Positions 24,341-47,454 of a DNA stretch of 64,000 bases are shown one piece after another. The stretch is from the IMG/VR virus record IMGVR_UViG_3300005259_000074, positions 128,001 through 192,000 of that record; one strand, given 5' to 3'. The first letter of the stretch is position 1; the number at the start of each line of letters is the position of its first letter. The stretch is from a virus. Its lineage: Duplodnaviria > Caudoviricetes. Position numbers and translations under genes: made by a program. The notes below the pieces were generated by a model. That model saw only the letters and a list, made by a program, of their open reading frames with translations, ran no database searches and had not been told where the DNA came from.

Positions 24341-25168
24341 ATGACCACAGTGTTATCCGACTTCTCCCGTAAGAGAGCTCTAGAACAGTGTCGAGGAGCT
24401 AAGAAAGTCCTCGTAGACTTCGCGCACGGTCTCGGCGACACGGTGATGTTCCTCCCAGTTTTCGACGAGTTTCGTAAGAACGTCTCAGATGCACGCGTAG
24501 ACTTGTTGACTCACTTCGGCCAAGAAGAGGTGTTCGGCGTCAAGACTGTTCAGTACTCGGAATACGATGTAGTGCTGACGTTGCCTTACGCCATGGCCGA
24601 GAACAGCGGGTCTACGAAGTCGGAAGCGTGCTGCGTCAGAGAACTCGGGATATTGCCGAATGCGGTGAAAGACAACTTGAAGTCTGCGTGGTACAGAGAC
24701 AACTACTCCCGAGTGTTCAGCTCGGACGAATCGTTCCGGAAGTCTAGTCCTTTCGTGCTGTTCGCCTTCCAGAGCACCGCCCTCCCAGACCCGTGCAACT
24801 GTCCTCCGCAGTTAGCTGAGACTCTCTGGAGAGAAGCCGAGAGCGTCGGGAAGATACCGATTGAATGCCACTTCTCCCACTGCTTCGCCAACCCCCGCAA
24901 CGCACAGTACCCTTTCGTGGGGAACTCCACTACCAGGAAGCTACCACCCAGAGTGCAATTGCTCGCCGACACGGTGAAGACCAGCTTCGCGTTCGTCGGA
25001 GTCGCGACGGGCTCCACTGTCGTCGCCATGGCCGGGAGCTCTCTTAGGACGGCTTTCCTAGAGAGGGCGTACCACAGGAGAGACTACTTCACTGAGGTGG
25101 GTCCGACGTTCAGCATCGACGACTACCGCCCCGGCAGCCTGGCCGCGTGGCTGAGAGGACTGGAGTGA
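24341..25168 (+). CDS. Glycosyltransferase, GT9-like (GT-B fold)
   Basis: FAHGLGDTVMFLP and AFVGVATG motifs. Confidence 0.6.
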   Translation: MTTVLSDFSRKRALEQCRGAKKVLVDFAHGLGDTVMFLPVFDEFRKNVSDARVDLLTHFGQEEVFGVKTVQYSEYDVVLTLPYAMAENSGSTKSEACCVRELGILPNAVKDNLKSAWYRDNYSRVFSSDESFRKSSPFVLFAFQSTALPDPCNCPPQLAETLWREAESVGKIPIECHFSHCFANPRNAQYPFVGNSTTRKLPPRVQLLADTVKTSFAFVGVATGSTVVAMAGSSLRTAFLERAYHRRDYFTEVGPTFSIDDYRPGSLAAWLRGLE

Positions 25169-25172
25169 CACC

Positions 25173-26114
25173 GTGAGAGCGTTCGTGCTATCTTGTGACG
25201 AGAACTACGTCGAGTACCTCAGGGCCTTCATCGGTAGCGTGCAGCGCCGTGGGATAGACGCGCGCGTCGTAGTAGTCCACCCTCCGGGGTTGAGGCTTCC
25301 AGCGGGTTGCGTATCTTTCGTGAACTCCAGGCCTCGAGAGTACTTGAAGACCGGTGGTAAGATGAAGGGGAAGACCCACAGCAACATCGGTTTCTGCCGG
25401 TGGGCCAGCATCCCTAAGATAGCTGCCATGGGCTACAGTTCGCTCTGCCTGATGGACGCCGACATGATGGTGACTTCTAAGCGCGTGGAGAACTTGTTCG
25501 ACGCCGTAGAGGGGACGTCTGTCATAGTCGGCGGAGACGAGGAGTCTAAGTGGGGGTTGGGACCGCAGTACCGGTACGTGAGAAAAGACGGATCGGACGT
25601 CAAGTTCTGCCAAGACCGCGCTGACCTGACTAGGATGAACTCTTTCTTCTGCATGCCGGTGTTCTTAGATGGAAGAGACCCGAATATCGTAGCGCTGTGC
25701 GAGAAGATAGAAGAAGTCAAGTACACCTCTTATCAGGAGAGAGACGGCAACGTCGACTTCTTGTGCGACATGTTCACCCACAACCTGTGCGTGCACGAGA
25801 CGGGTTTAGACCGACGAGTCGTGCAAGTGCCGATGGCGCAGACTACTCAAGTGCACTTCGTGGGATACACTCCGTTCGACCTGATCAGGGAAGAAGCCGG
25901 AGACTGGTACACCAAAGATGGTCTGCCGGTCTACTCCATGCACGGTAAGTTCGCGTCTAAGACGTTCGTCAAAGACTACATGTGGGGTTGCAATCGCAAG
26001 CTAGAGCTGTGGGGGATACAGAAGCAGATGGAGCACTACTTGCCGGAAGCTCAGAAGGTGCTCGAGAGGGTCCAAGCAGAGTGGAGGCTGTGCCATGATT
26101 CAGTTCGCGCGTGA
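25173..26114 (+). CDS. Glycosyltransferase, GT-A fold (GT8-like)
   Basis: CDENYVEYL N-terminus and LCLMDADMMV DxD motif. Confidence 0.6.
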   Translation: MRAFVLSCDENYVEYLRAFIGSVQRRGIDARVVVVHPPGLRLPAGCVSFVNSRPREYLKTGGKMKGKTHSNIGFCRWASIPKIAAMGYSSLCLMDADMMVTSKRVENLFDAVEGTSVIVGGDEESKWGLGPQYRYVRKDGSDVKFCQDRADLTRMNSFFCMPVFLDGRDPNIVALCEKIEEVKYTSYQERDGNVDFLCDMFTHNLCVHETGLDRRVVQVPMAQTTQVHFVGYTPFDLIREEAGDWYTKDGLPVYSMHGKFASKTFVKDYMWGCNRKLELWGIQKQMEHYLPEAQKVLERVQAEWRLCHDSVRA

Positions 26115-38541: not shown

Positions 38542-39642
38542 ATGTCGAACTCTGACGCTGGGTCTGTGGAAGCAGATCAACCTCCCTTGCCTAAGAATGA
38601 AAACTGCTGGAGATGGCAGTTAGCTAACAGGATAACCACAGCAGCTCAGCTGTCTGATATCATAGAACTAACCGAAGACGAACGATCTGCAATAGACCAC
38701 ACTGGTCTTCCCTTCGCGATAACTCCTTATTACGCGAAGCTGATATCAAACCCTCATATAAGAAAGTGCGTAGTGCCGAGCACTCATGAGATGACACACA
38801 GCGTCGGAGAAGACGCGGACCCACTCGGAGAAGAGTCTCACTCGAACGGCACGTGCGTAGTCCACCGGTACCCTGATCGCTGTCTGTTCATGGTGACTAA
38901 ATTCTGCTCGACGTTCTGCCGGTACTGCACTCGTTCTAGACTGGTTAGTGAAGGTGAGTGCATCTCAGATACTGACATAGAGGCAGGCATAGCTTATATC
39001 AGAGACCACGCGAAGATCAGAGATGTGATAGTGTCGGGTGGAGACCCTCTGACACTGTCTACAGATAAGTTAGACCGCATACTGACTGCGATAAGAAGCA
39101 TTTCACACGTGGAAGTCATCAGAATAGGTACTAAGGTTCCTGTGGTCCTTCCTCAGCGGATCGATCAAGAATTATGCCACATGTTAATGAAACACCACCC
39201 ACTGTTCGTTAATATACACTTCACTCACCTTGCGGAGCTGACACCTGAATGTGTTTCAGCGTGTTCTAAGCTTGCCAATTCTGGGATACCATTGGGATCT
39301 CAAACAGTGCTACTGAAAGGCGTCAACGATGATGCAACAACTATGAGACAGCTGTTTCAGGGACTGTTGAAGGCTCGGGTGATACCGCGATACTTGTACC
39401 AGTGCGACCCGGTGTTCGGTTCGTCTCACTTCCGGACTGACACGTCAGTGGGGTTAGACATCATCAGGTCTCTCAGAGGGTGGACTAGTGGGATGGCATG
39501 TCCCAGGTACGTCATTGACGCGCCTGGTGGTGGAGGAAAGATATGTCTAGAGCCGAACAGCGTGGTTGAAGACAATAGTGAAAAAATCACCATGAAGAAC
39601 TTCAGAGGAGAACTATACTCCTATCCGAAATTAGCGTCGTGA
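38542..39642 (+). CDS. kamA: Lysine 2,3-aminomutase-family radical SAM enzyme
   Basis: HRYPDR, CSTFCRYC (CxxxCxxC), VIVSGGDPL, IRIGT, SQTVLLKGVND and PGGGGK motifs. Confidence 0.9.
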   Translation: MSNSDAGSVEADQPPLPKNENCWRWQLANRITTAAQLSDIIELTEDERSAIDHTGLPFAITPYYAKLISNPHIRKCVVPSTHEMTHSVGEDADPLGEESHSNGTCVVHRYPDRCLFMVTKFCSTFCRYCTRSRLVSEGECISDTDIEAGIAYIRDHAKIRDVIVSGGDPLTLSTDKLDRILTAIRSISHVEVIRIGTKVPVVLPQRIDQELCHMLMKHHPLFVNIHFTHLAELTPECVSACSKLANSGIPLGSQTVLLKGVNDDATTMRQLFQGLLKARVIPRYLYQCDPVFGSSHFRTDTSVGLDIIRSLRGWTSGMACPRYVIDAPGGGGKICLEPNSVVEDNSEKITMKNFRGELYSYPKLAS

Positions 39643-41584: not shown

Positions 41585-41890
41585 TCATAGGTTCGATAAT
41601 TCATTATCTGTTTCATTTGCTATTTCAGCGAGGATTTCTGCGTGGCAATATTTTGGAGAGCACCAACATCCCAAGATCTTGTCTTTCAATTCACATCTTA
41701 CTTTTTCTCTCAGTTCTATGTTCTCATTCAGCCATTTTTTGAACTTGAGGATCACTTCATTCCGATTTCCATCTTTTCCAATCTCGAACGGATTTCCGAA
41801 TGGACTTGGCCGTCCCACATAAACATCATATGTCGTCTTTTTGCAGTGCACGACATACTTAGCGTATTTTCTCTTGGAAGATTTTGACAT
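41585..41890 (-). CDS. DUF4326-like protein
   Basis: VVHCKK..YDVYVGRPSPFGNPF...LGCWCSPKYCHA. Confidence 0.85.
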   Translation of the reverse strand: MSKSSKRKYAKYVVHCKKTTYDVYVGRPSPFGNPFEIGKDGNRNEVILKFKKWLNENIELREKVRCELKDKILGCWCSPKYCHAEILAEIANETDNELSNL

Positions 41891-41897
41891 ATGAAGT

Positions 41898-41969
41898 AGC
41901 CCAAAATCGGTGCCGACCCGATGACCTCGTCCTTACCAAGGACGTGCTCTACCGCTGAGCTACTTGGGC
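41898..41969 (-). tRNA. tRNA-Thr(GGT)
   Basis: Cloverleaf by hand; loop TT-GGT-AA; T-loop GTCGGCA; no CCA. Confidence 0.9.
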
Positions 41970-41975
41970 ATATGT

Positions 41976-42049
41976 TGGTGCGGTTAGGGAATTACGATAT
42001 CCCGATTGCTGTCTGGCAGGCAGCCGTCTTTCCTCTAGACTATAACCGC
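41976..42049 (-). tRNA. tRNA-Gly(GCC)
   Basis: GCGGTTA/TAACCGC acceptor stem, CCA, non-canonical T-arm. Confidence 0.85.
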
Positions 42050-42060
42050 AATGTAATTAT

Positions 42061-42453
42061 TTACCCTCTCAGGCAGCTTCCACAAGCTCCAGAAGGTTTG
42101 CAGTCTTCTGGACACCTTGTCATATCTTCTTCGTCTCTGTACTTCTCGATCATTGTCTTAGCTGTGAAGATCAACGCGCGATTTCTAGCGCCTTTCATCG
42201 TCTTGGAGTATGGAGTGACCTCTAAAAATCCTTTCCACGTGACGAATCCCCTATAAGTCTTACCCACGCTGAACACGTGGACTCTGACATCTTTCGCTGG
42301 GTCACAGTGATATCTGTTATCTCGCTCTTTCACCCACTTAGCTTTCTTGAAGACCTGCAATCGTTCTTTCACGTCGAACAGAGTTGGATGATACTTGACA
42401 TCGTCTTCTGAGAACGATATGTCTATCTTCTGCATGATCGTGAAATTGTCCAT
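42061..42453 (-). CDS. Hypothetical protein within the tRNA array
   Basis: 130-aa ORF ending just before tRNA-Gly. Confidence 0.55.
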   Translation of the reverse strand: MDNFTIMQKIDISFSEDDVKYHPTLFDVKERLQVFKKAKWVKERDNRYHCDPAKDVRVHVFSVGKTYRGFVTWKGFLEVTPYSKTMKGARNRALIFTAKTMIEKYRDEEDMTRCPEDCKPSGACGSCLRG

Positions 42454-42454
42454 G

Positions 42455-42649
42455 TCATCTTCTCACTTCTGGTATTGGAAGTCCTTCTTCTCTCAGCATT
42501 TCTATCCCATCATCGATAGCTTCTTCTAGAATCTCTAGAGCTTTCACTTGGTCTCTATCAATACCCGACAGATGAGGAAAATCTTTGCACACGGCGATGA
42601 ACTCACCGTGTTCTTCGTCGTACACAATGATCTTGTTGTAGTGTGACAT
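42455..42649 (-). CDS. HicB-like antitoxin N-terminal domain only
   Basis: DEEHGEFIAVCKDFPHLSG...EALEILEEAIDDGIEMLREEGLPIP; 64 aa; no DNA-binding domain. Confidence 0.8.
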   Translation of the reverse strand: MSHYNKIIVYDEEHGEFIAVCKDFPHLSGIDRDQVKALEILEEAIDDGIEMLREEGLPIPEVRR

Positions 42650-42724
42650 TGGTATCCTCTGTAGGTAACGAGCCTACGACCTTCGCGATGTGAACGCGAT
42701 GCTCTACAACTGAGCTAAGAGGAC
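42650..42724 (-). tRNA. tRNA-Val(CAC)
   Basis: TCGCG-TT-CAC-AT-CGCGA anticodon arm; CCA. Confidence 0.9.
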
Positions 42725-42735
42725 AAGAAACTTCA

Positions 42736-43077
42736 TCATTTCCACAATTTGTACCAAGAGAACGGCTTCGGCCACTGATCGTTAGGCCTTGGACAGAACA
42801 CCAACGCAGTCTCAGCACCACCAAGTCCCGACTCGGTCATCAACACGTATTTGTCGAACTTCTTGGCGTTCTCAAATTCTCTGTCGTTGAGCTTACAGAT
42901 GCACTTCCTGAAAGACTTGTCTAGCCATAGGTCGTAGTCTGCGTCTTTCCCAGAGAACTGCCTGTCGGCCGCTAACACTCCGTGCCCGACGGCCAGCATA
43001 GCGTGTCCTATGTCGATAGACTCTCTGACCAAGATGTACATCCTGGTGCTGCACTCAGTCGAAGTCGTCGTACTCAC
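42736..43077 (-). CDS. Peptidyl-tRNA hydrolase type 2 (PTH2)-like protein
   Basis: MYILVR...G..M.AVGHG...W....F.KCIC...TAL..CPR; start may be 43041. Confidence 0.7.
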   Translation of the reverse strand: MSTTTSTECSTRMYILVRESIDIGHAMLAVGHGVLAADRQFSGKDADYDLWLDKSFRKCICKLNDREFENAKKFDKYVLMTESGLGGAETALVFCPRPNDQWPKPFSWYKLWK

Positions 43078-43240
43078 TGTACTTGTCCATTTCTACGTCA
43101 TCTAGGAGTTCTTCGATGAGCTTCTTCTCAGACACTCGTTTTTCGTTGCGGTTCTTCATCGTCTTCTCTTGTGGGTTGACTTCCCACATTTTGCGTGTCA
43201 ATTTGTAGGACGGCGTCTTCTGGTGCTTCTTAGAGCTCAT
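43055..43240 (-). CDS. Small hypothetical protein
   Basis: 61-aa ORF with ATGA overlap. Confidence 0.55.
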   Translation of the reverse strand: MSSKKHQKTPSYKLTRKMWEVNPQEKTMKNRNEKRVSEKKLIEELLDDVEMDKYSEYDDFD

Positions 43241-43398
43241 TTCATCTTTCTCTTCTTGATAACTGTACTGCGTCTAGCTCTCTTCCAGAATTCCTCAGTG
43301 AGTTCTGGAATGTCTGAATAGTCTATTTCAGAATCTTTCATCGCCCTGAGTCTGTCGATGTCATCTTGTTTTATCTTTCGTGTAGAGCGATCTACCAT
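43237..43398 (-). CDS. BrnA-antitoxin-like N-terminal fragment (53 aa, not in the ORF track)
   Basis: MVDRSTRKIKQDDIDRLRAMKDSEIDYSDIPELTEEFWKRARRSTVIKKRKMK; overlaps both neighbours. Confidence 0.7.
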   Translation of the reverse strand: MVDRSTRKIKQDDIDRLRAMKDSEIDYSDIPELTEEFWKRARRSTVIKKRKMK

Positions 43399-43553
43399 TC
43401 TGTGATAGTCTTTCTGAAATCTTCTTTCGGAAGATTCTTATACCTGCGAACTTTCTTCTTGCAGTAAGGACAGCGTTCTCCTTCGCTCACGAGTGCGTGA
43501 TCGCAACATGGACACCAAGAATGCCTGTATCTGTGTAAAGGGCCGCGCTTCAT
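43392..43553 (-). CDS. Small Zn-ribbon protein
   Basis: CPCC and CPYC motifs; ATG three nt after the CCA of tRNA-Val(TAC). Confidence 0.6.
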   Translation of the reverse strand: MKRGPLHRYRHSWCPCCDHALVSEGERCPYCKKKVRRYKNLPKEDFRKTITEW

Positions 43554-43556
43554 AAT

Positions 43557-43631
43557 TGGTAGGAGTAGAGGAAATCGAATCCCCATAGCCGACGTGTAGA
43601 GTCGGTGCACTTACCGTTGTGCTATACTCCC
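43557..43631 (-). tRNA. tRNA-Val(TAC), C33 variant
   Basis: CCGAC-TC-TAC-AC-GTCGG; CCA. Confidence 0.85.
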
Positions 43632-43912
43632 ATAACAAAGTCTAGATCGAGCAAGTTTGGAGCGGTCCGGACATTTTACTGCAGCAATCTGTCCAAACAT
43701 CCTAAAGCATCTAATTATATATTTCTTGCTCGACCTAGACCCATAAATCATCTGGTGCCTATAACCGGTCTCACGACCAGTAACCCTCCCGACTCCTCGA
43801 CTGTTGGTCTAGCAGATTTACCATGGCACTCTGCTATACTCTGTCGCACCCTCGTTCGCGTGAAAGCAATCGATTGCTTTCCTAGGCTGGCGCTTGACGT
43901 ATCAAGCGTAAA
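43632..43912 (-). ncRNA. Structured non-coding RNA candidate
   Basis: 16-bp stem GTCTAGGTCGAGCAAG/CTTGCTCGATCTAGAC plus several hairpins, between two tRNAs. Confidence 0.55.
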
Positions 43913-43986
43913 TGGTCCCTCCAGCAGATCTCGAAACTGCGTCTCGGGCTTATGAAACCCGCGTTCTTCCTGTGAACTATAGAGGG
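43913..43986 (-). tRNA. tRNA-CAT (elongator Met or Ile2)
   Basis: CGGGT-TT-CAT-AA-GCCCG; CCA. Confidence 0.85.
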
Positions 43987-43996
43987 ATAATGCACG

Positions 43997-44070
43997 TGGT
44001 ACTCCTTGAGGGTTCGAAACCTCGACCTCTTCCATGTCACGGAAGTGCTCTACAACTGAGCTAAAGGAGC
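43997..44070 (-). tRNA. tRNA-Val(GAC)
   Basis: CTTCC-GT-GAC-AT-GGAAG; CCA; T-arm one nt short. Confidence 0.85.
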
Positions 44071-44501
44071 ATGAGATCGTTCTTGACTGTCCTTCTGATG
44101 TTCTTCCTTATCAGCATGATCATCTTACCTAGTACGTTCTTCCCAGTGCCTTTGCACTGGCTGCAATAACATACTCCCCAGCAGCGGTCGTGCCACGTGT
44201 TGCCTTCTTCGAGGTACTGATCGCCTGTGTCTAGCAACTTCTGCCTCAACACTGGGTCTCTGAACTTGTAGACCAGAAGTCGGTACATCACTCGGTACTT
44301 CTTGACTTCCCAGTCTGGAACCATTGAACAGACTTGACCTGCTCTCTTGGCTTGCCCTGGAGATGGGAGGTGAGCGATGTACTTCCTAGTCGAGGGACTA
44401 GATGCTTTCGCAGCTTGGTAGTAGTGCTCGATAGTCTTTCCGTTCGGGAACTTCGAAAAATTGGAGAGCCAACGAGTGTCGCCGCGAAATTCCTTGATCA
44501 T
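44061..44501 (-). CDS. NADAR (YbiA-like) family protein
   Basis: WLSNF, EHYYQAAK, KFRDP.LRQKLL.TG and EGNTWHDRCWG motifs; ATG at 44501 with GAGGA SD; stop lies inside tRNA-Val(GAC). Confidence 0.85.
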   Translation of the reverse strand: MIKEFRGDTRWLSNFSKFPNGKTIEHYYQAAKASSPSTRKYIAHLPSPGQAKRAGQVCSMVPDWEVKKYRVMYRLLVYKFRDPVLRQKLLDTGDQYLEEGNTWHDRCWGVCYCSQCKGTGKNVLGKMIMLIRKNIRRTVKNDLMLL

Positions 44502-44608
44502 CTCATCCTCTTCGTTTGAATTTTCCCGAGCTCCTTCGCGTCTATCCGGTCCTGGCAGGCGGCGACGTGTAGTGCCGCTCTTCGAGTCGAAGAAGGGACC
44601 CTCGAGAA

Positions 44609-44682
44609 TGGAGCACTGTGGGAATTCTGACATCCCAACTGCAACTTGGGAAGTTGCGGTCTTTCCTTTAGACTAACAGTGC
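44609..44682 (-). tRNA. tRNA-Gly(CCC)
   Basis: GCAAC-TT-CCC-AA-GTTGC; CCA; T-loop GTCAGAA. Confidence 0.85.
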
Positions 44683-44685
44683 AGA

Positions 44686-44759
44686 TGGTGCGAGTAGAGA
44701 ATTCCGACATCTCGTCGCTAGTTTGGAAAACTAGGGTCCTTCCTCTGAACGATACTCGC
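44686..44759 (-). tRNA. tRNA-Gly(TCC)
   Basis: CTAGT-TT-TCC-AA-ACTAG; CCA; T-loop GTCGGAA. Confidence 0.85.
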
Positions 44760-44891
44760 ATTAACACTCGGACTACTGATCCCTCTCCGGTCTCGACTAT
44801 ACGGTGACCTCGAGTGGATCCTTCATCCGAATCTGGCTCGGATAGATGTGGAGAGCGTCTATACGGTTCTTCACGTCTATTCGAAAACTTC

Positions 44892-44967
44892 TGGCGCATC
44901 CAAGGAGTGCTGACCTCCTGACCTGCGGATCGACAATCCGCTGCACTAACCGTTGTGCTATGGATGC
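44892..44967 (-). tRNA. tRNA-Asp(GTC)
   Basis: GCGGA-TT-GTC-GA-TCCGC; G73; CCA. Confidence 0.9.
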
Positions 44968-44982
44968 ATGATCTAATATACT

Positions 44983-45056
44983 TGGTACTCCATAGCGGTG
45001 TTGATCCGCTTCCTCATGGCTGAGAACCATGTGGTCTACCGTTAACCTAATGGAGC
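44983..45056 (-). tRNA. tRNA-Glu(CTC)
   Basis: CATGG-TT-CTC-AG-CCATG; CCA. Confidence 0.9.
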
Positions 45057-45064
45057 ATGAATTC

Positions 45065-45140
45065 TGGTGGACGCAGTGGTAATCGAAACCACATTCTCCG
45101 GGTGCAAACCGAAAGTAATAAACCGTTATACTATGCGCCC
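45065..45140 (-). tRNA. tRNA-Ala(TGC)
   Basis: G3:U70 pair; TT-TGC-AC loop; CCA. Confidence 0.9.
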
Positions 45141-45296
45141 TGTTGAATCTCTAAAGATTCATAAAGATAAATCAAACTGCCGCTCCTGTCAATGAAGACC
45201 AATTGAATCTTCACGAGAGCGATCTTCTCTCATTGCAACGCACTGAGATCTATCCGGACTACAACCGGAGTTCGATAGGCGGACGTCTCCGCTTTC

Positions 45297-45372
45297 TGGT
45301 GGATACGGGAGGTGATCGAAACCTCTCTTGCAAGATGCGAACCTGCCGTGCAGCCATCTACACTACCGACCC
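45297..45372 (-). tRNA. tRNA-Ala(CGC)
   Basis: G3:U70 pair; TT-CGC-AT loop; one-nt bulge in the acceptor stem; CCA. Confidence 0.8.
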
Positions 45373-45393
45373 ATAATAATGATGCATCTGACT

Positions 45394-45469
45394 TGGAGCC
45401 TACGGGCAAGGATTTGAACCGCCATCCATCGGGTACAGACCGATGATTCTACCTTTGAACTACGCAGGC
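45394..45469 (-). tRNA. tRNA-Thr(TGT), C33 variant
   Basis: ATCGG-TC-TGT-AC-CCGAT; two-nt bulge in the T-stem; CCA. Confidence 0.8.
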
Positions 45470-45480
45470 ATGAAAAACTG

Positions 45481-45562
45481 TAACAGAGGTGGAGAGTTGA
45501 ACCCACAATGCGTTTCCGCCTGGGTTATGAGCCCAGTTAGCCTACCGAGGCTCGTCTCTGTA
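45481..45562 (-). tRNA. Initiator-like tRNA-Met(CAT) with long variable arm
   Basis: CTGGG-CT-CAT-AA-CCCAG (three G-C pairs), U1:U72 mismatch, V-arm GCG-GAAA-CGC; no CCA. Confidence 0.7.
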
Positions 45563-45565
45563 ATC

Positions 45566-45654
45566 TGGTGGAGAGGGAACGATTCGAACGTCCGACACAG
45601 AGCCCTAATTCAAACATCAGTTGGCTCCTGCTCTACCGCTGAGCTACCTACTCC
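45566..45654 (-). tRNA. tRNA-like RNA with extended anticodon arm (20-nt loop region); identity unknown
   Basis: Canonical D-arm, T-arm and CCA; anticodon stem GGAGC/GCTCT encloses CAACTGATGTTTGAATTAGG. Confidence 0.7.
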
Positions 45655-45671
45655 ATTATTTCTATGAAGAG

Positions 45672-45745
45672 CTCCTGTGGCATGGCTCGAACATGCGACT
45701 TGGAGATTAACAATCTCCCGTTCATACCGACTGAACTACACAGGA
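45672..45745 (-). tRNA. tRNA-Asn(GTT) copy 1, inside a 21-bp perfect inverted repeat
   Basis: GGAGA-TT-GTT-AA-TCTCC; G73; no CCA. Confidence 0.9.
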
Positions 45746-45761
45746 GCTCTTCATAGAAAGT

Positions 45762-45837
45762 TGGCTCACTTGGCTTGATTCGAACAAGCATGTTCAGAGT
45801 TAACAGCTCTGCCTACTGCCAATTGTAGTACAAGTGA
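45762..45837 (-). tRNA. tRNA-Asn(GTT) copy 2
   Basis: CAGAG-CT-GTT-AA-CTCTG; G73; CCA. Confidence 0.9.
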
Positions 45838-45845
45838 ATAAGAAA

Positions 45846-45976
45846 TTAGACTGGTCGCTCTTCCGCTGAGCTATCGTGTACATTCTACTTCGTTAGCTGG
45901 ACTCAGTAGAAGTAGGTCCTCCGCGTGCACTCATCAGACCACTCACGAGTCGGATTTGAACCGACGTCTTCCAGTT
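45846..45976 (-). ncRNA. Circularly permuted tRNA-like module P3
   Basis: 3' half 45976-45941 precedes 5' half 45880-45846; ACCAG/CTGGA and TACACGA/TCGTGAG pairings; 60-nt insert closing the acceptor stem. Confidence 0.75.
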
Positions 45977-46000
45977 GATGGTGTCTCTAGGGCACCTTAA

Positions 46001-46080
46001 TGAGTGCGAGTGTTCTACCATTAAACTACCAGCAAGGTATTTCACTCGCCAGCTTGGAATCGAACCAAGACCTCTCGCTT
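46001..46080 (-). ncRNA. Circularly permuted tRNA-like module P2
   Basis: 3' half 46080-46045, 9-nt linker TGAAATACC, 5' half 46035-46001; CTCGC/GCGAG and TTGCTGG/CTGGCGA pairings. Confidence 0.8.
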
Positions 46081-46114
46081 TGGTGGAACGCCGCTCTTTT
46101 CATAACCGCGCCCC
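46081..46114 (-). ncRNA. Ala-type acceptor microhelix (34 nt)
   Basis: GGGGCGC...GCGTTCC-A-CCA with a G3:U70 pair. Confidence 0.6.
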
Positions 46115-46305
46115 ATAAATGCCTCGACACATTAGCCGCTATGCTACTAGTGCCAACAAATCCACTGAAAAGCATGGTTGTGTTGCAACACAGTTCTCTC
46201 CTAGAAGAGAACGCTCGTCAGTTTCATTGAGGTGTCGAAACGCGGTTGCAATCCGCTTTACGACCTATTGCACAAGTTGGGATTTGAACCCAACTCTTCG
46301 AGGGT
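46115..46305 (-). ncRNA. Circularly permuted tRNA-like module P1
   Basis: 3' half 46305-46269, 115-nt structured insert, 5' half from 46153; TCGAG/CTCGA and GCACTAG/CTTGTGC pairings. Confidence 0.75.
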
Positions 46306-46381
46306 TGGTGGTGTCGGCGGGCAATGATCCCACAACTTTCCGGGTAAGAGCCGGATACTCTGCCAATTGAGTTACGACACC
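46306..46381 (-). tRNA. tRNA-Lys(CTT)
   Basis: TCCGG-CT-CTT-AC-CCGGA; CCA; T-loop ATCATTG. Confidence 0.9.
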
Positions 46382-46388
46382 TTGAATC

Positions 46389-46512
46389 TGGTAACGGACC
46401 TACATTTAGTAGTGCCTCATGGGCTATGTTGCCCAGCGTGCTGCCCCGCCAAATGTTTCTATCCGGGGCGAGGTGACGCAGTGATGGTTCTGCGCCTTTA
46501 CACCATTCCGTA
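46389..46512 (-). ncRNA. 124-nt CCA-ended multi-hairpin RNA (tRNA-like)
   Basis: TACGGA/TCCGTT-A-CCA closing stem enclosing four hairpins. Confidence 0.5.
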
Positions 46513-46520
46513 ATAAACTG

Positions 46521-46588
46521 TAGCGGAGCTGGATTCGATACCAGATCACCAGGTTATGAGCCTAGTATGCTACTTACACCACCCCGCA
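46521..46588 (-). tRNA. Initiator-like tRNA-Met(CAT) with minimal D-loop
   Basis: TGCGGGG/CTCCGCT acceptor with U1:U72 mismatch; CT-CAT-AA loop; no CCA. Confidence 0.75.
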
Positions 46589-46942
46589 TGTTGGTGTCTC
46601 TAGGACACCATAAAGAGTCATCAGTTGACGCTCTCCGAGCGATCATCAGAGGTGGAGAAGTTTCTTAGACAGAGATGAATCTTGACGGGACCATTTGAGT
46701 TGGGTAAAAACCCACGTGAGGTCCTTCGTGGCACATGTCTGTCAGACGCCGGCTGCTCAGCAACCGACATCGCTCCTCCACCTCGGATGACCACTGGAAA
46801 GCGATCACCTGAGAATAATCCTCATTTTCAAAGAACGGTGCATGAGCTTTAGTAGCACGCATATCTCTCAGTCTGTTCAGCTAGCGACTTGCGCCTCTAG
46901 CATCTGAAAGCTCTCGCGACTCATGCTGAGTCCATTTTGTCT
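46589..46942 (-). ncRNA. About 350-nt structured non-coding RNA candidate
   Basis: GAGGTGGAGGAG/CTTCTCCACCTC long-range helix with flanking helices; 12-bp G-U-rich hairpin. Confidence 0.6.
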
Positions 46943-47017
46943 TGGTGCGCTCGGAGAATTTTGAAATCTCGACTCTCTGGTTAAAAGCCAGATACTCTGC
47001 CTCTGAGTTACGAGCGC
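46943..47017 (-). tRNA. tRNA-Lys(TTT)
   Basis: TCTGG-CT-TTT-AA-CCAGA; CCA. Confidence 0.9.
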
Positions 47018-47055
47018 ATATTTCTAATCAGCACCTGAGACTTTCACATCTCATT

Positions 47056-47132
47056 TGGTGGGAGAACCGGGTTTCGATTCCGGATATCCTGCTCTTCAGG
47101 CAGGAGCTCTTGACCGTTTGAGCTATTCTCCC
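47056..47132 (-). tRNA. tRNA-Phe(GAA)
   Basis: CCTGC-CT-GAA-GA-GCAGG; CCA. Confidence 0.9.
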
Positions 47133-47141
47133 ATAAACTTC

Positions 47142-47216
47142 TGGTATCCCGTGTCGGTATCGATCCGACTTCCCCTGGATGAAGGCCAGGCATCCTAGCC
47201 AGTAGACGAACGGGAC
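47142..47216 (-). tRNA. tRNA-Glu(TTC)
   Basis: CCTGG-CC-TTC-AT-CCAGG; CCA. Confidence 0.9.
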
Positions 47217-47221
47217 AAATG

Positions 47222-47276
47222 TGAATGAGATGTCTCGCGACATACCAGTTGCAAGCAACTGTCTCACTCATATTCA
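47222..47276 (-). ncRNA. Small three-way-junction RNA candidate
   Basis: TGAGA/TCTCA closing stem, CAGTTGC/GCAACTG hairpin and TGTC-GCGA-GACA GNRA hairpin. Confidence 0.4.
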
Positions 47277-47379
47277 ATGATCACCGGCTTCCGATCTCTC
47301 GTCCGCCTAATCCAATTATACACCACGTGGTGAAAATTGTAATAGGACTTTCGAAAAATCTTCGACCTTTCTTTCGAAC

Positions 47380-47454
47380 TGGAGCTGGTTCCCGGTGACG
47401 ATCCGAGGTCTGTGGGATACGAATCCACTGCTCTACCATTTGAGCTAAACCAGC
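47380..47454 (-). tRNA. tRNA-Thr(CGT)
   Basis: GTGGA-TT-CGT-AT-CCCAC; CCA. Confidence 0.9.

Follow-up and report, generated by a model that had tools for sequence, protein, structure and literature searches.

The tRNA (transfer RNA) genes analysed here belong to an uncultured, distantly T4-like phage, represented by IMG/VR record IMGVR_UViG_3300005259_000074 (262,470 bp; CheckV completeness estimate of 97%), and lie mostly in a stretch of 64,000 nucleotides, positions 128,001-192,000 of that record, hereafter called the window. Its gp6-type baseplate wedge protein has its best cultured matches among cyanophage and Streptomyces phage proteins, with 22-27% identity. Between positions 41,898 and 47,454 of the window, ARAGORN predicted 20 tRNA genes, all on the minus strand. 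The Rfam model RF00005 confirmed these genes and added a tRNA-Gly(UCC) (match at 44,689-44,759) and a Met-like tRNA (match at 46,521-46,588). A third tRNA-Gly, with anticodon CCC (44,609-44,682), follows tRNA-Gly(UCC) after 3 nt, and was recognized when the sequence was read, from its minimum-energy fold into a cloverleaf, and with a purpose-built detector described below. About a dozen more tRNAs form a second cluster, at 253-255 kb, giving 33 cloverleaf tRNAs in the record, 23 of them in the window. A genome scan for further hidden variant tRNAs with encoded CCA elsewhere in the genome returned none that was convincing.

T-loops of the phage tRNAs

The T54-Psi55-C56 sequence and the U54-A58 pair are textbook 'universal' features of the tRNA T-loop. 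U54 is absent from 16 of the 33 phage tRNAs, 12 of which are among the 23 in the window and four in the second cluster (Gln-CTG, His-GTG, Arg-ACG and Arg-CCT). The initial annotation of the window, made from its letters alone, had reported at least 12 tRNAs without U54, a count that is borne out, and all T-loop strings it quoted are present as written. The window variants, together with two canonical tRNAs on a variant scaffold, are as follows.

41898-41969, minus strand: tRNA-Thr(GGU), T-loop GTCGGCA, G54:G58, A60, G53:C61; ARAGORN, Rfam 54.7 bits
41976-42049, minus strand: tRNA-Gly(GCC), T-loop ATCGTAA, A54:U58, A60, U53.U61; ARAGORN
42650-42724, minus strand: tRNA-Val(CAC), T-loop CTCGTTA, C54:U58, A60, D-loop AGTTGTA with a single G; ARAGORN, Rfam
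43913-43986, minus strand: tRNA-Met(CAU), T-loop TTCGAGA, canonical U54:A58 on a U53.U61/A60 scaffold
44609-44682, minus strand: tRNA-Gly(CCC), T-loop GTCAGAA, G54:G58, A60, U53.U61; not reported by ARAGORN or Rfam
44686-44759, minus strand: tRNA-Gly(UCC), T-loop GTCGGAA, G54:G58, A60, U53.U61; Rfam 39.9 bits, not reported by ARAGORN
44892-44967, minus strand: tRNA-Asp(GUC), T-loop GTCAGCA, G54:G58, A60, discriminator G73; ARAGORN, Rfam
44983-45056, minus strand: tRNA-Glu(CUC), T-loop ATCAACA, A54:A58, A60; ARAGORN
46306-46381, minus strand: tRNA-Lys(CUU), T-loop ATCATTG, A54:U58, G60; ARAGORN, Rfam
46518-46588, minus strand: Met-like tRNA (CAU), six-base T-loop ATCGAA, A54, A58, U53.U61, no encoded CCA; Rfam 38.7 bits
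46943-47017, minus strand: tRNA-Lys(UUU), T-loop TTCAAAA, canonical U54:A58 on a U53.U61/A60 scaffold
47056-47132, minus strand: tRNA-Phe(GAA), T-loop ATCGAAA, A54:A58, A60, A53.C61; ARAGORN, Rfam
47142-47216, minus strand: tRNA-Glu(UUC), T-loop ATCGATA, A54:A58, A60
47380-47454, minus strand: tRNA-Thr(CGU), T-loop ATCGTCA, A54:U58, A60; ARAGORN, Rfam

Across all 33 tRNAs, the 54:58 combinations were U:A (17), A:U (6), G:G (4), A:A (4), C:U (1) and G:C (1), with the variants spanning 11 amino acids. A58 was lost in 12 of the 16 variants, and position 60 was A in 12 and G in one, in agreement with the earlier remark that A58 is often lost and position 60 often A. That remark also counted five U53:U61 mismatches; the mismatch is real, but it occurs in six tRNAs of the window and seven of the genome. 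In total, G53:C61 is replaced in 13 of 33 tRNAs, including A53.C61 in tRNA-Phe. As a set, the 33 tRNAs depart from the canonical class I features U54-A58, pyrimidine 60 and G53:C61. A54, A58 and A60 occur together in tRNA-Phe and in both tRNA-Glu genes, and the loop of the Met-like tRNA is one base shorter. The three tRNA-Gly have in common U53.U61, A59A60 and similar T-stems, combined with A54:U58 once and with G54:G58 twice, and both His-GTG and Gln-CTG are present as one canonical and one variant copy.

These positions covaried within the phage. A58 accompanied U54 in 17 of 17 tRNAs, G58 was confined to tRNAs with G54 (p = 1e-4), and A60 was present in 17 of the 19 tRNAs that lack U54 or carry U53.U61 but absent from the 14 others (p = 1.5e-7); these and all later p-values are optimistic and indicative only, given that tRNAs within the genome and within IMG/VR samples are partly related.

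Further unusual positions were observed. C33 replaces the near-universal U33 in Val-UAC (43557-43631), Thr-UGU (45394-45469) and Glu-UUC (47142-47216), all on the minus strand. A tRNA-Cys in the second cluster (genome 254456-254538, minus strand) has a TTTGAAT loop, with U56, and its D-loop lacks GG (GAGCGATCGAA). The same U56, combined with a D-loop altered at its second G, was also present in several megaphage tRNAs and at locus L089, which suggests a swapped 19:56 elbow pair.

Loop classes in other phages

The frequency of non-U54 tRNAs was compared with that in the tRNA clusters of seven phages from public collections and of four distant T4-like IMG/VR contigs, all annotated with ARAGORN. 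Non-U54 tRNAs numbered 0/42 in Pumpernickel, 0/22 in VPT02, 1/16 in a megaphage region, 1/4 in Pam2, 2/16 in Amme-3, 1/22 in pv27 and 0/3 in SXP01, and 1/26 in the four T4-like contigs, where the other 25 had U54. Altogether, 6 of 151 tRNAs in these 11 phages lacked U54, five of them with A54:U58, as compared to 16 of 33 here (p = 1e-9), the ARAGORN background rate being a lower bound because some variant classes are under-detected.

We also used the purpose-built detector, which is blind to positions 54 and 58-60 and requires U55-C56-R57 and strict stems, on 287 fetched IMG/VR loci chosen via seed tRNAs with the U53.U61 scaffold. Among the matches listed, this yielded 1,334 further distinct tRNAs of unrelated IMG/VR phages, 90 of which (6.7%) were non-U54, as compared to 12 of 23 here (p = 1e-8). 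Of the 92 other loci that had at least eight tRNAs, among the matches listed, only two reached 40% variants or more. The initial annotation had described a systematic rewriting of the T-loop; the high share is real, but the loop classes are not unique to this phage and occur at about 7% elsewhere. The two other heavy-user records had no match to the gp6-like protein of this phage, and heavy variant use as a lineage trait is not backed, given that the distant T4-like contigs had nearly all U54.

The same detector results served as a census of loop classes. On a G53:C61 pair (n = 1,265, among the matches listed), the 54:58 combinations were UA (1185), AU (46), AA (18), GG (10), CA (5) and AG (1), and position 60 was a purine in 2.8% of U:A tRNAs as compared to 85% of A:U, 100% of A:A and 100% of G:G tRNAs, again among the matches listed. 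Two scaffolds with U53.U61 were scanned separately. With the pattern GGGAT-N-TCG-N-AA-TTCCC, the distinct tRNAs among the matches listed had U:A (51), A:U (12), C:G (13), G:C (2) or G:G (2), the 11 other cells being empty; with GAGAT-N-TCG-N-AA-TTCTC, they had U:A (57), A:U (29) or C:G (8) and no other combination among the matches listed. Positions 54 and 58 were hence Watson-Crick-complementary in 172 of 174 distinct tRNAs on these scaffolds and G:G in two, among the matches listed. Fourteen of the 16 phage variants fit the classes defined by this census, namely A:U, A:A or G:G on G53:C61, and Watson-Crick or G:G on U53.U61, each combined with a purine at position 60 and with unchanged U55-C56-R57; the two that do not fit are Val-CAC, with C:U, and Arg-CCT, with G:C on U53.G61.

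Individual T-arms recurred exactly. The arm of tRNA-Gly(GCC), GGGAT-ATCGTAA-TTCCC, was present in a tRNA-Gly of the Pseudanabaena phage Pam2 and in 66 IMG/VR contigs, in which it is carried by 41 distinct tRNAs with seven anticodons (Asn, Met, Lys twice, Gly, Trp and Val). The acceptor and anticodon stems of these 41 tRNA bodies differ at nearly every position with pairing kept, and this T-arm looks like a modular phage tRNA scaffold reused across identities. The 17-nt arm was usually accompanied by a short D-loop, AGAGGNA. Nine more phage tRNAs, with Met and Lys identities, carry its G54:G58 version; ARAGORN missed all nine, as it did two of the three tRNA-Gly here. Standard gene finders thus miss part of the variant genes, so phage tRNA repertoires are under-annotated, with a blind spot at G54:G58 combined with U53.U61.

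Loop classes also differed between related genes. The tRNA-Thr(GGU) of megaphage LR756501 is 76% identical to that of this phage and has ATCGTTA where this phage has GTCGGCA, and a tRNA-Glu of Pseudomonas phage Amme-3 resembles Glu-UUC (68% identity globally, 78% in the BLAST match) and has the same T-stem with a canonical TTCGAAT loop. In a family of homologous tRNA-Phe genes from cultured phages of Pseudomonas, Cellulophaga and Stenotrophomonas, the loop classes interconvert and the T-stems are compensated:

TTCGATT (canonical): PPSC2
ATCGTAA or ATCGTTA: Amme-3, PAK_P2, DLP_6
ATCGAAA: Calle_2, Bitten
CTCGATA: phiPsa397, Kremar, M5.1

Within this family, A8 replaces U8 in eight of nine members (AAGCTAAC...), DLP_6 having U8, and the gene has no tRNA annotation in the GenBank records of PAK_P2, phiPsa397, M5.1 and Kremar. 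The loop classes are general solutions in phage tRNAs, and what is peculiar to this phage is how often they are used.

Integrity and structure of the variant tRNAs

The initial annotation held that the variants do not look like decay, and this is well supported. The elbow bases U55 (33/33), C56 (32/33) and R57 (33/33) were kept, as compared to U54 in 17 of 33, and the D-loop GG was present in all variants except Val-CAC and Arg-CCT. Variant stems were intact and CCA was encoded in most. Eleven of the 12 window variants scored above the RF00005 cut-off of 29, with 38.7-58.3 bits, on par with canonical tRNAs; the remaining one, Gly-CCC, forms a minimum-energy cloverleaf, yet was not reported by Rfam. 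Discriminators matched the expected identity (G73 in Asp, A73 in Phe and Lys, also in Gln and others), R37 was kept, and U33 was kept with one exception (C33 in Glu-UUC). The variants decode codons preferred by the phage (GAC 69%, TTC 82%, AAG 64%, GAG 56%, CAC 77% and CAG 64%), GGA and GGC, read by the variant tRNA-Gly, are likewise preferred, and the only tRNAs encoded for Gly, Glu, Asp and Phe are variants. It is very probable, judging from these gene features, that the variant genes are genuine phage tRNAs working in translation.

We give almost no credence to the alternative that they are decaying pseudogenes or non-decoding tRNA-like RNAs, such as decoys or tRNAs of the staphylococcal cell-wall type. 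Three members are irregular in a way that would fit decay, namely the Met-like tRNA at 46521, with its six-base T-loop and no CCA, Thr-UGU, with a poor T-stem, and Gly-CCC, missed by Rfam. The intact cloverleaves, kept U33 and R37 (with the Glu-UUC exception), correct discriminators and high Rfam scores speak against it, as do the covariation, the stems compensated across many phages, the recurrence in unrelated phages and the match to preferred codons. The staphylococcal non-proteinogenic tRNA-Gly, to which the initial annotation had compared these genes, has lost G18G19, binds elongation factor Tu (EF-Tu) weakly via its T-stem pairs and concerns glycine only. The phage tRNAs share with it a T-loop that departs from T-Psi-C, but the analogy fails given that the three tRNA-Gly of the phage keep the GG of the D-loop and that its variants cover 11 amino acids. 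The accompanying suggestion of altered EF-Tu binding is unsupported as well, because EF-Tu reads T-stem pairs and not the loop, where the changes lie.

At the sequence level, the contact that closes the U55-C56-R57 mini-loop is swapped in the variants for another 54:58 pair, together with a change from pyrimidine to A at position 60, and in a second architecture G53:C61 gives way to U53.U61, also with A60. Given that U55 and C56, which contact G18 and G19, and the intercalated R57 are kept, the L-shape and the outer face of the elbow are probably unchanged, and RNase P, the ribosome and synthetases would still meet a normal tRNA. On the U53.U61 scaffold, positions 54 and 58 are Watson-Crick-complementary almost without exception, which suggests that they form a cis Watson-Crick pair there. 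From their bases, the variants have no site for 5-methyluridine 54 (m5U54) and, in 12 of 16, none for 1-methyladenosine 58 (m1A58), and the U54-U55-C56 motif is gone. The 54-58 contact of phage tRNAs can be regarded as a swappable pair with clear covariation rules, and provides structural biology with a natural mutational series of the T-loop.

The tRNA-Phe loop ATCGAAA is presumably the loop sequence of the eukaryotic initiator tRNA. More generally, a loop with A54, A58 and purine 60 is that of eukaryotic initiator tRNA-Met and tRNA-Ala(AGC) (PMC3950347, PMC7566577, PMC7912444), which resemble the phage tRNAs in having A54 for T54 and in keeping U55-C56-R57. In the eukaryotic initiator, A54:A58 forms a longer trans Watson-Crick/Hoogsteen pair (PMC7566577), and by analogy G54:G58 may pair in the same manner. 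Such A54/A58 pairs were stated as not observed in bacterial or archaeal tRNAs (PMC7566577). Unlike in the eukaryotic initiator, the phage loop sits in Phe and Glu elongators and a Met-like species of a bacterial virus: the full carriers of A54, A58 and A60 are the elongators, which have no initiator body (CAU with three G:C pairs closing the anticodon stem). Neither is the R15/A48 combination of eukaryotic tRNA-Ala consistent in these tRNAs, which have A15/U48, A15/A48 and C15/A48. Our literature search, incomplete in coverage, returned no description of A54:U58, G54:G58, C54:G58 or a U53.U61/A60 scaffold in phage tRNAs.

Explanations for the high share of variant loops

The same classes recur at a low rate in numerous unrelated phages, whose hosts belong to several phyla, and the canonical and three variant loops interchange freely within the tRNA-Phe family; both would be expected if these loops were neutral or nearly neutral structural equivalents. 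Phage tRNAs, being short-lived and exempt from some of the constraints on cellular tRNAs, would then drift among a few T-loops that fold equally well, and the excess in this phage would reflect history, through duplication and exchange. This is a serious possibility, although we stop short of calling it probable. The alteration of other 'universal' positions (C33 in three tRNAs, a non-G:C 53:61 pair in 13, U56 in tRNA-Cys) points in the same direction, and so does the half of the phage's tRNAs that remains canonical. However, the share in the window is strongly over-dispersed relative to the 6.7% background, with only the two loci mentioned coming near, among the matches listed; moreover, the variants are found chiefly among the main decoders of preferred codons, and the phage retains canonical and variant tRNAs with one and the same anticodon.

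We lean slightly towards a different and joint reading, in which genuine, working tRNAs adopted alternative T-loop architectures and their high share is kept against a host factor that reads T54-Psi55. In its weakest step, the main decoders would have been made insensitive to that factor, the likeliest candidate being an endonuclease of the Cash/Schlafen or CdiA-CT(E479) type that acts on the T-loop. The initial annotation had raised the evasion of T-arm-recognizing nucleases or modifying enzymes, which is plausible by analogy with such enzymes. Cash, a Schlafen nuclease associated with CRISPR, cleaves many tRNAs in the T-loop, 5' of U55, and requires UUC; cleavage is abolished by single U54 or U55 mutations, and U54 point mutants resist it in vitro (PMC13462974). 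In the T-loop, the contact-dependent growth inhibition (CDI) toxin CdiA-CT(E479) makes its cut between T and Psi (PMC9086364). Both act at the U54/U55 step altered here and would be candidate selective agents, not relatives of the feature. The more specific claim that the rewired loops are a counter-defence, rendering the main decoders uncleavable by T-loop-cutting immune nucleases while the fold is retained, is one we put forward tentatively.

Published cases of escape by phage tRNAs concern changes in the anticodon stem-loop of single tRNA species. They include tRNAs of T5 that escape PARIS, and escape from retron and PrrC-type anticodon nucleases (cited in PMC13462974). As in T5, the phage tRNAs here would differ from host tRNA at bases read by a nuclease, and so maintain translation; unlike in T5, it is the T-loop of 16 species that is changed, and escape would be the presumed outcome. 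The phage also encodes tRNA-repair-type proteins outside the window, namely a PolyA_pol/CCA-adding-type nucleotidyltransferase (111 bits; genome 1418-2773, plus strand) and two RNA_ligase proteins of the Rnl2 type (24879-25886 and 246853-247479, both minus strand). These genes, a NADAR gene and antitoxin-like open reading frames (ORFs), and the canonical/variant pairs are in keeping with the countering of tRNA damage. A T-loop nuclease of the phage's own, with the variants conferring self-immunity, was considered and rejected, as the phage has no Schlafen-domain gene.

Several observations weigh against selection by a T-loop nuclease. UUC is kept in 17 of 33 tRNAs and there is no variant for Leu, Ser, Tyr, Trp, Ile, Ala, Pro, Asn or Cys, so that escape from a broad T-loop nuclease would be incomplete, and U55, which Cash also needs, is retained. 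Given that phages of many kinds, infecting many kinds of hosts, have about 7% variants, a neutral structural alternative fits as well as selection does, and the covariation, read from the sequences, points to structural constraint and not to a selective reason. If selection by a nuclease is nevertheless the true explanation, alternative 54:58 pairs with purine 60 would be a phage-side footprint of a widespread, recently recognized tRNA-targeting immunity. Whether Cash targets phage tRNAs was left open by its authors in their 2026 paper (PMC13462974); natural U54-less tRNAs make this question testable, with culturable tRNA-Phe in PAK_P2 and Amme-3 that can be set against the canonical one of PPSC2.

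An improbable alternative is that the loops respond to maturation enzymes that read the T-loop, either by escaping TrmA/TrmFO, TrmI or TruB or by fitting the phage CCA-adding-type enzyme, in which case the folding, stability or turnover of phage tRNAs would change. The loss of U54 and, mostly, of A58 does remove modification sites (PMC7912444), the phage does encode a PolyA_pol/CCA-type enzyme, and no TruB or TrmA gene of its own was found in the genome. Yet CCA is already encoded in most variants, an advantage of lacking m5U54 is unsupported, and variants occur alike in phages of TrmA-type (Pseudomonas, Vibrio) and TrmFO-type (cyanobacteria) hosts (PMC7912444).

It is very unlikely that the host's own tRNAs bear the same T-loops and the phage merely copies them, given that comparable variants are present in phages that infect Pseudomonas aeruginosa, P. 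putida, Vibrio and Pseudanabaena and that half of the tRNAs of this phage are canonical. To our knowledge, the tRNAs of these hosts are canonical. Enzyme-related explanations, host copying and decay, even when added together, account for only a small part of the probability, roughly an eighth.

Relatives of the phage and neighbouring genes

A megablast search of the tRNA cluster against 50,697 phage records gave no match, and the blastn matches were confined to individual canonical tRNAs or to 5' halves. No relative was found when the gp6-like, NADAR and ThyX proteins were each used as query against IMG/VR. In an alignment-based scan with the gp6-like protein, the best identity was 47%, in contigs of 10-12 kb, and the five nearest records were without tRNAs; a search of genome contigs gave best relatives at 33% identity or less. 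A metagenome scan retrieved two long relatives, L109 (220 kb, 41%) and L114 (164 kb, 39%), and matches with 84-85% identity to this phage were noted among ENA contigs. The sole hint at a host was a 39%-identical protein binned in a Saccharofermentans metagenome-assembled genome.

The genes interleaved with or close to the tRNA cluster are:

38542-39642, plus strand: 366-aa KamA-family radical-SAM protein (lysine 2,3-aminomutase or EpmB type; PF12544, PF04055)
41585-41890, minus strand: DUF4326 protein
42455-42649, minus strand: 64-aa ORF, HicB-like by eye only
44061-44633, minus strand: NADAR-domain protein; its longest reading frame and the 3' end of tRNA-Gly(CCC) overlap

The KamA-family protein, encoded 2.3 kb from the tRNA cluster, shares 55-59% identity with bacterial enzymes; it was rejected as a lineage-specific marker, having thousands of bacterial homologues. 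Bacterial enzymes of the family's EpmB branch modify elongation factor P, and by analogy the gene may be another one acting on translation.

The interval 45838-46305 (minus strand) contains, between annotated tRNAs, two canonical T-arms of regular form, at 46277-46293 and 46053-46069, that are not preceded by a normal tRNA body. Finally, decoding of ATA requires a lysidine-type or UAU tRNA-Ile, and ATA makes up 38% of the isoleucine codons in 125 long ORFs of the whole genome.

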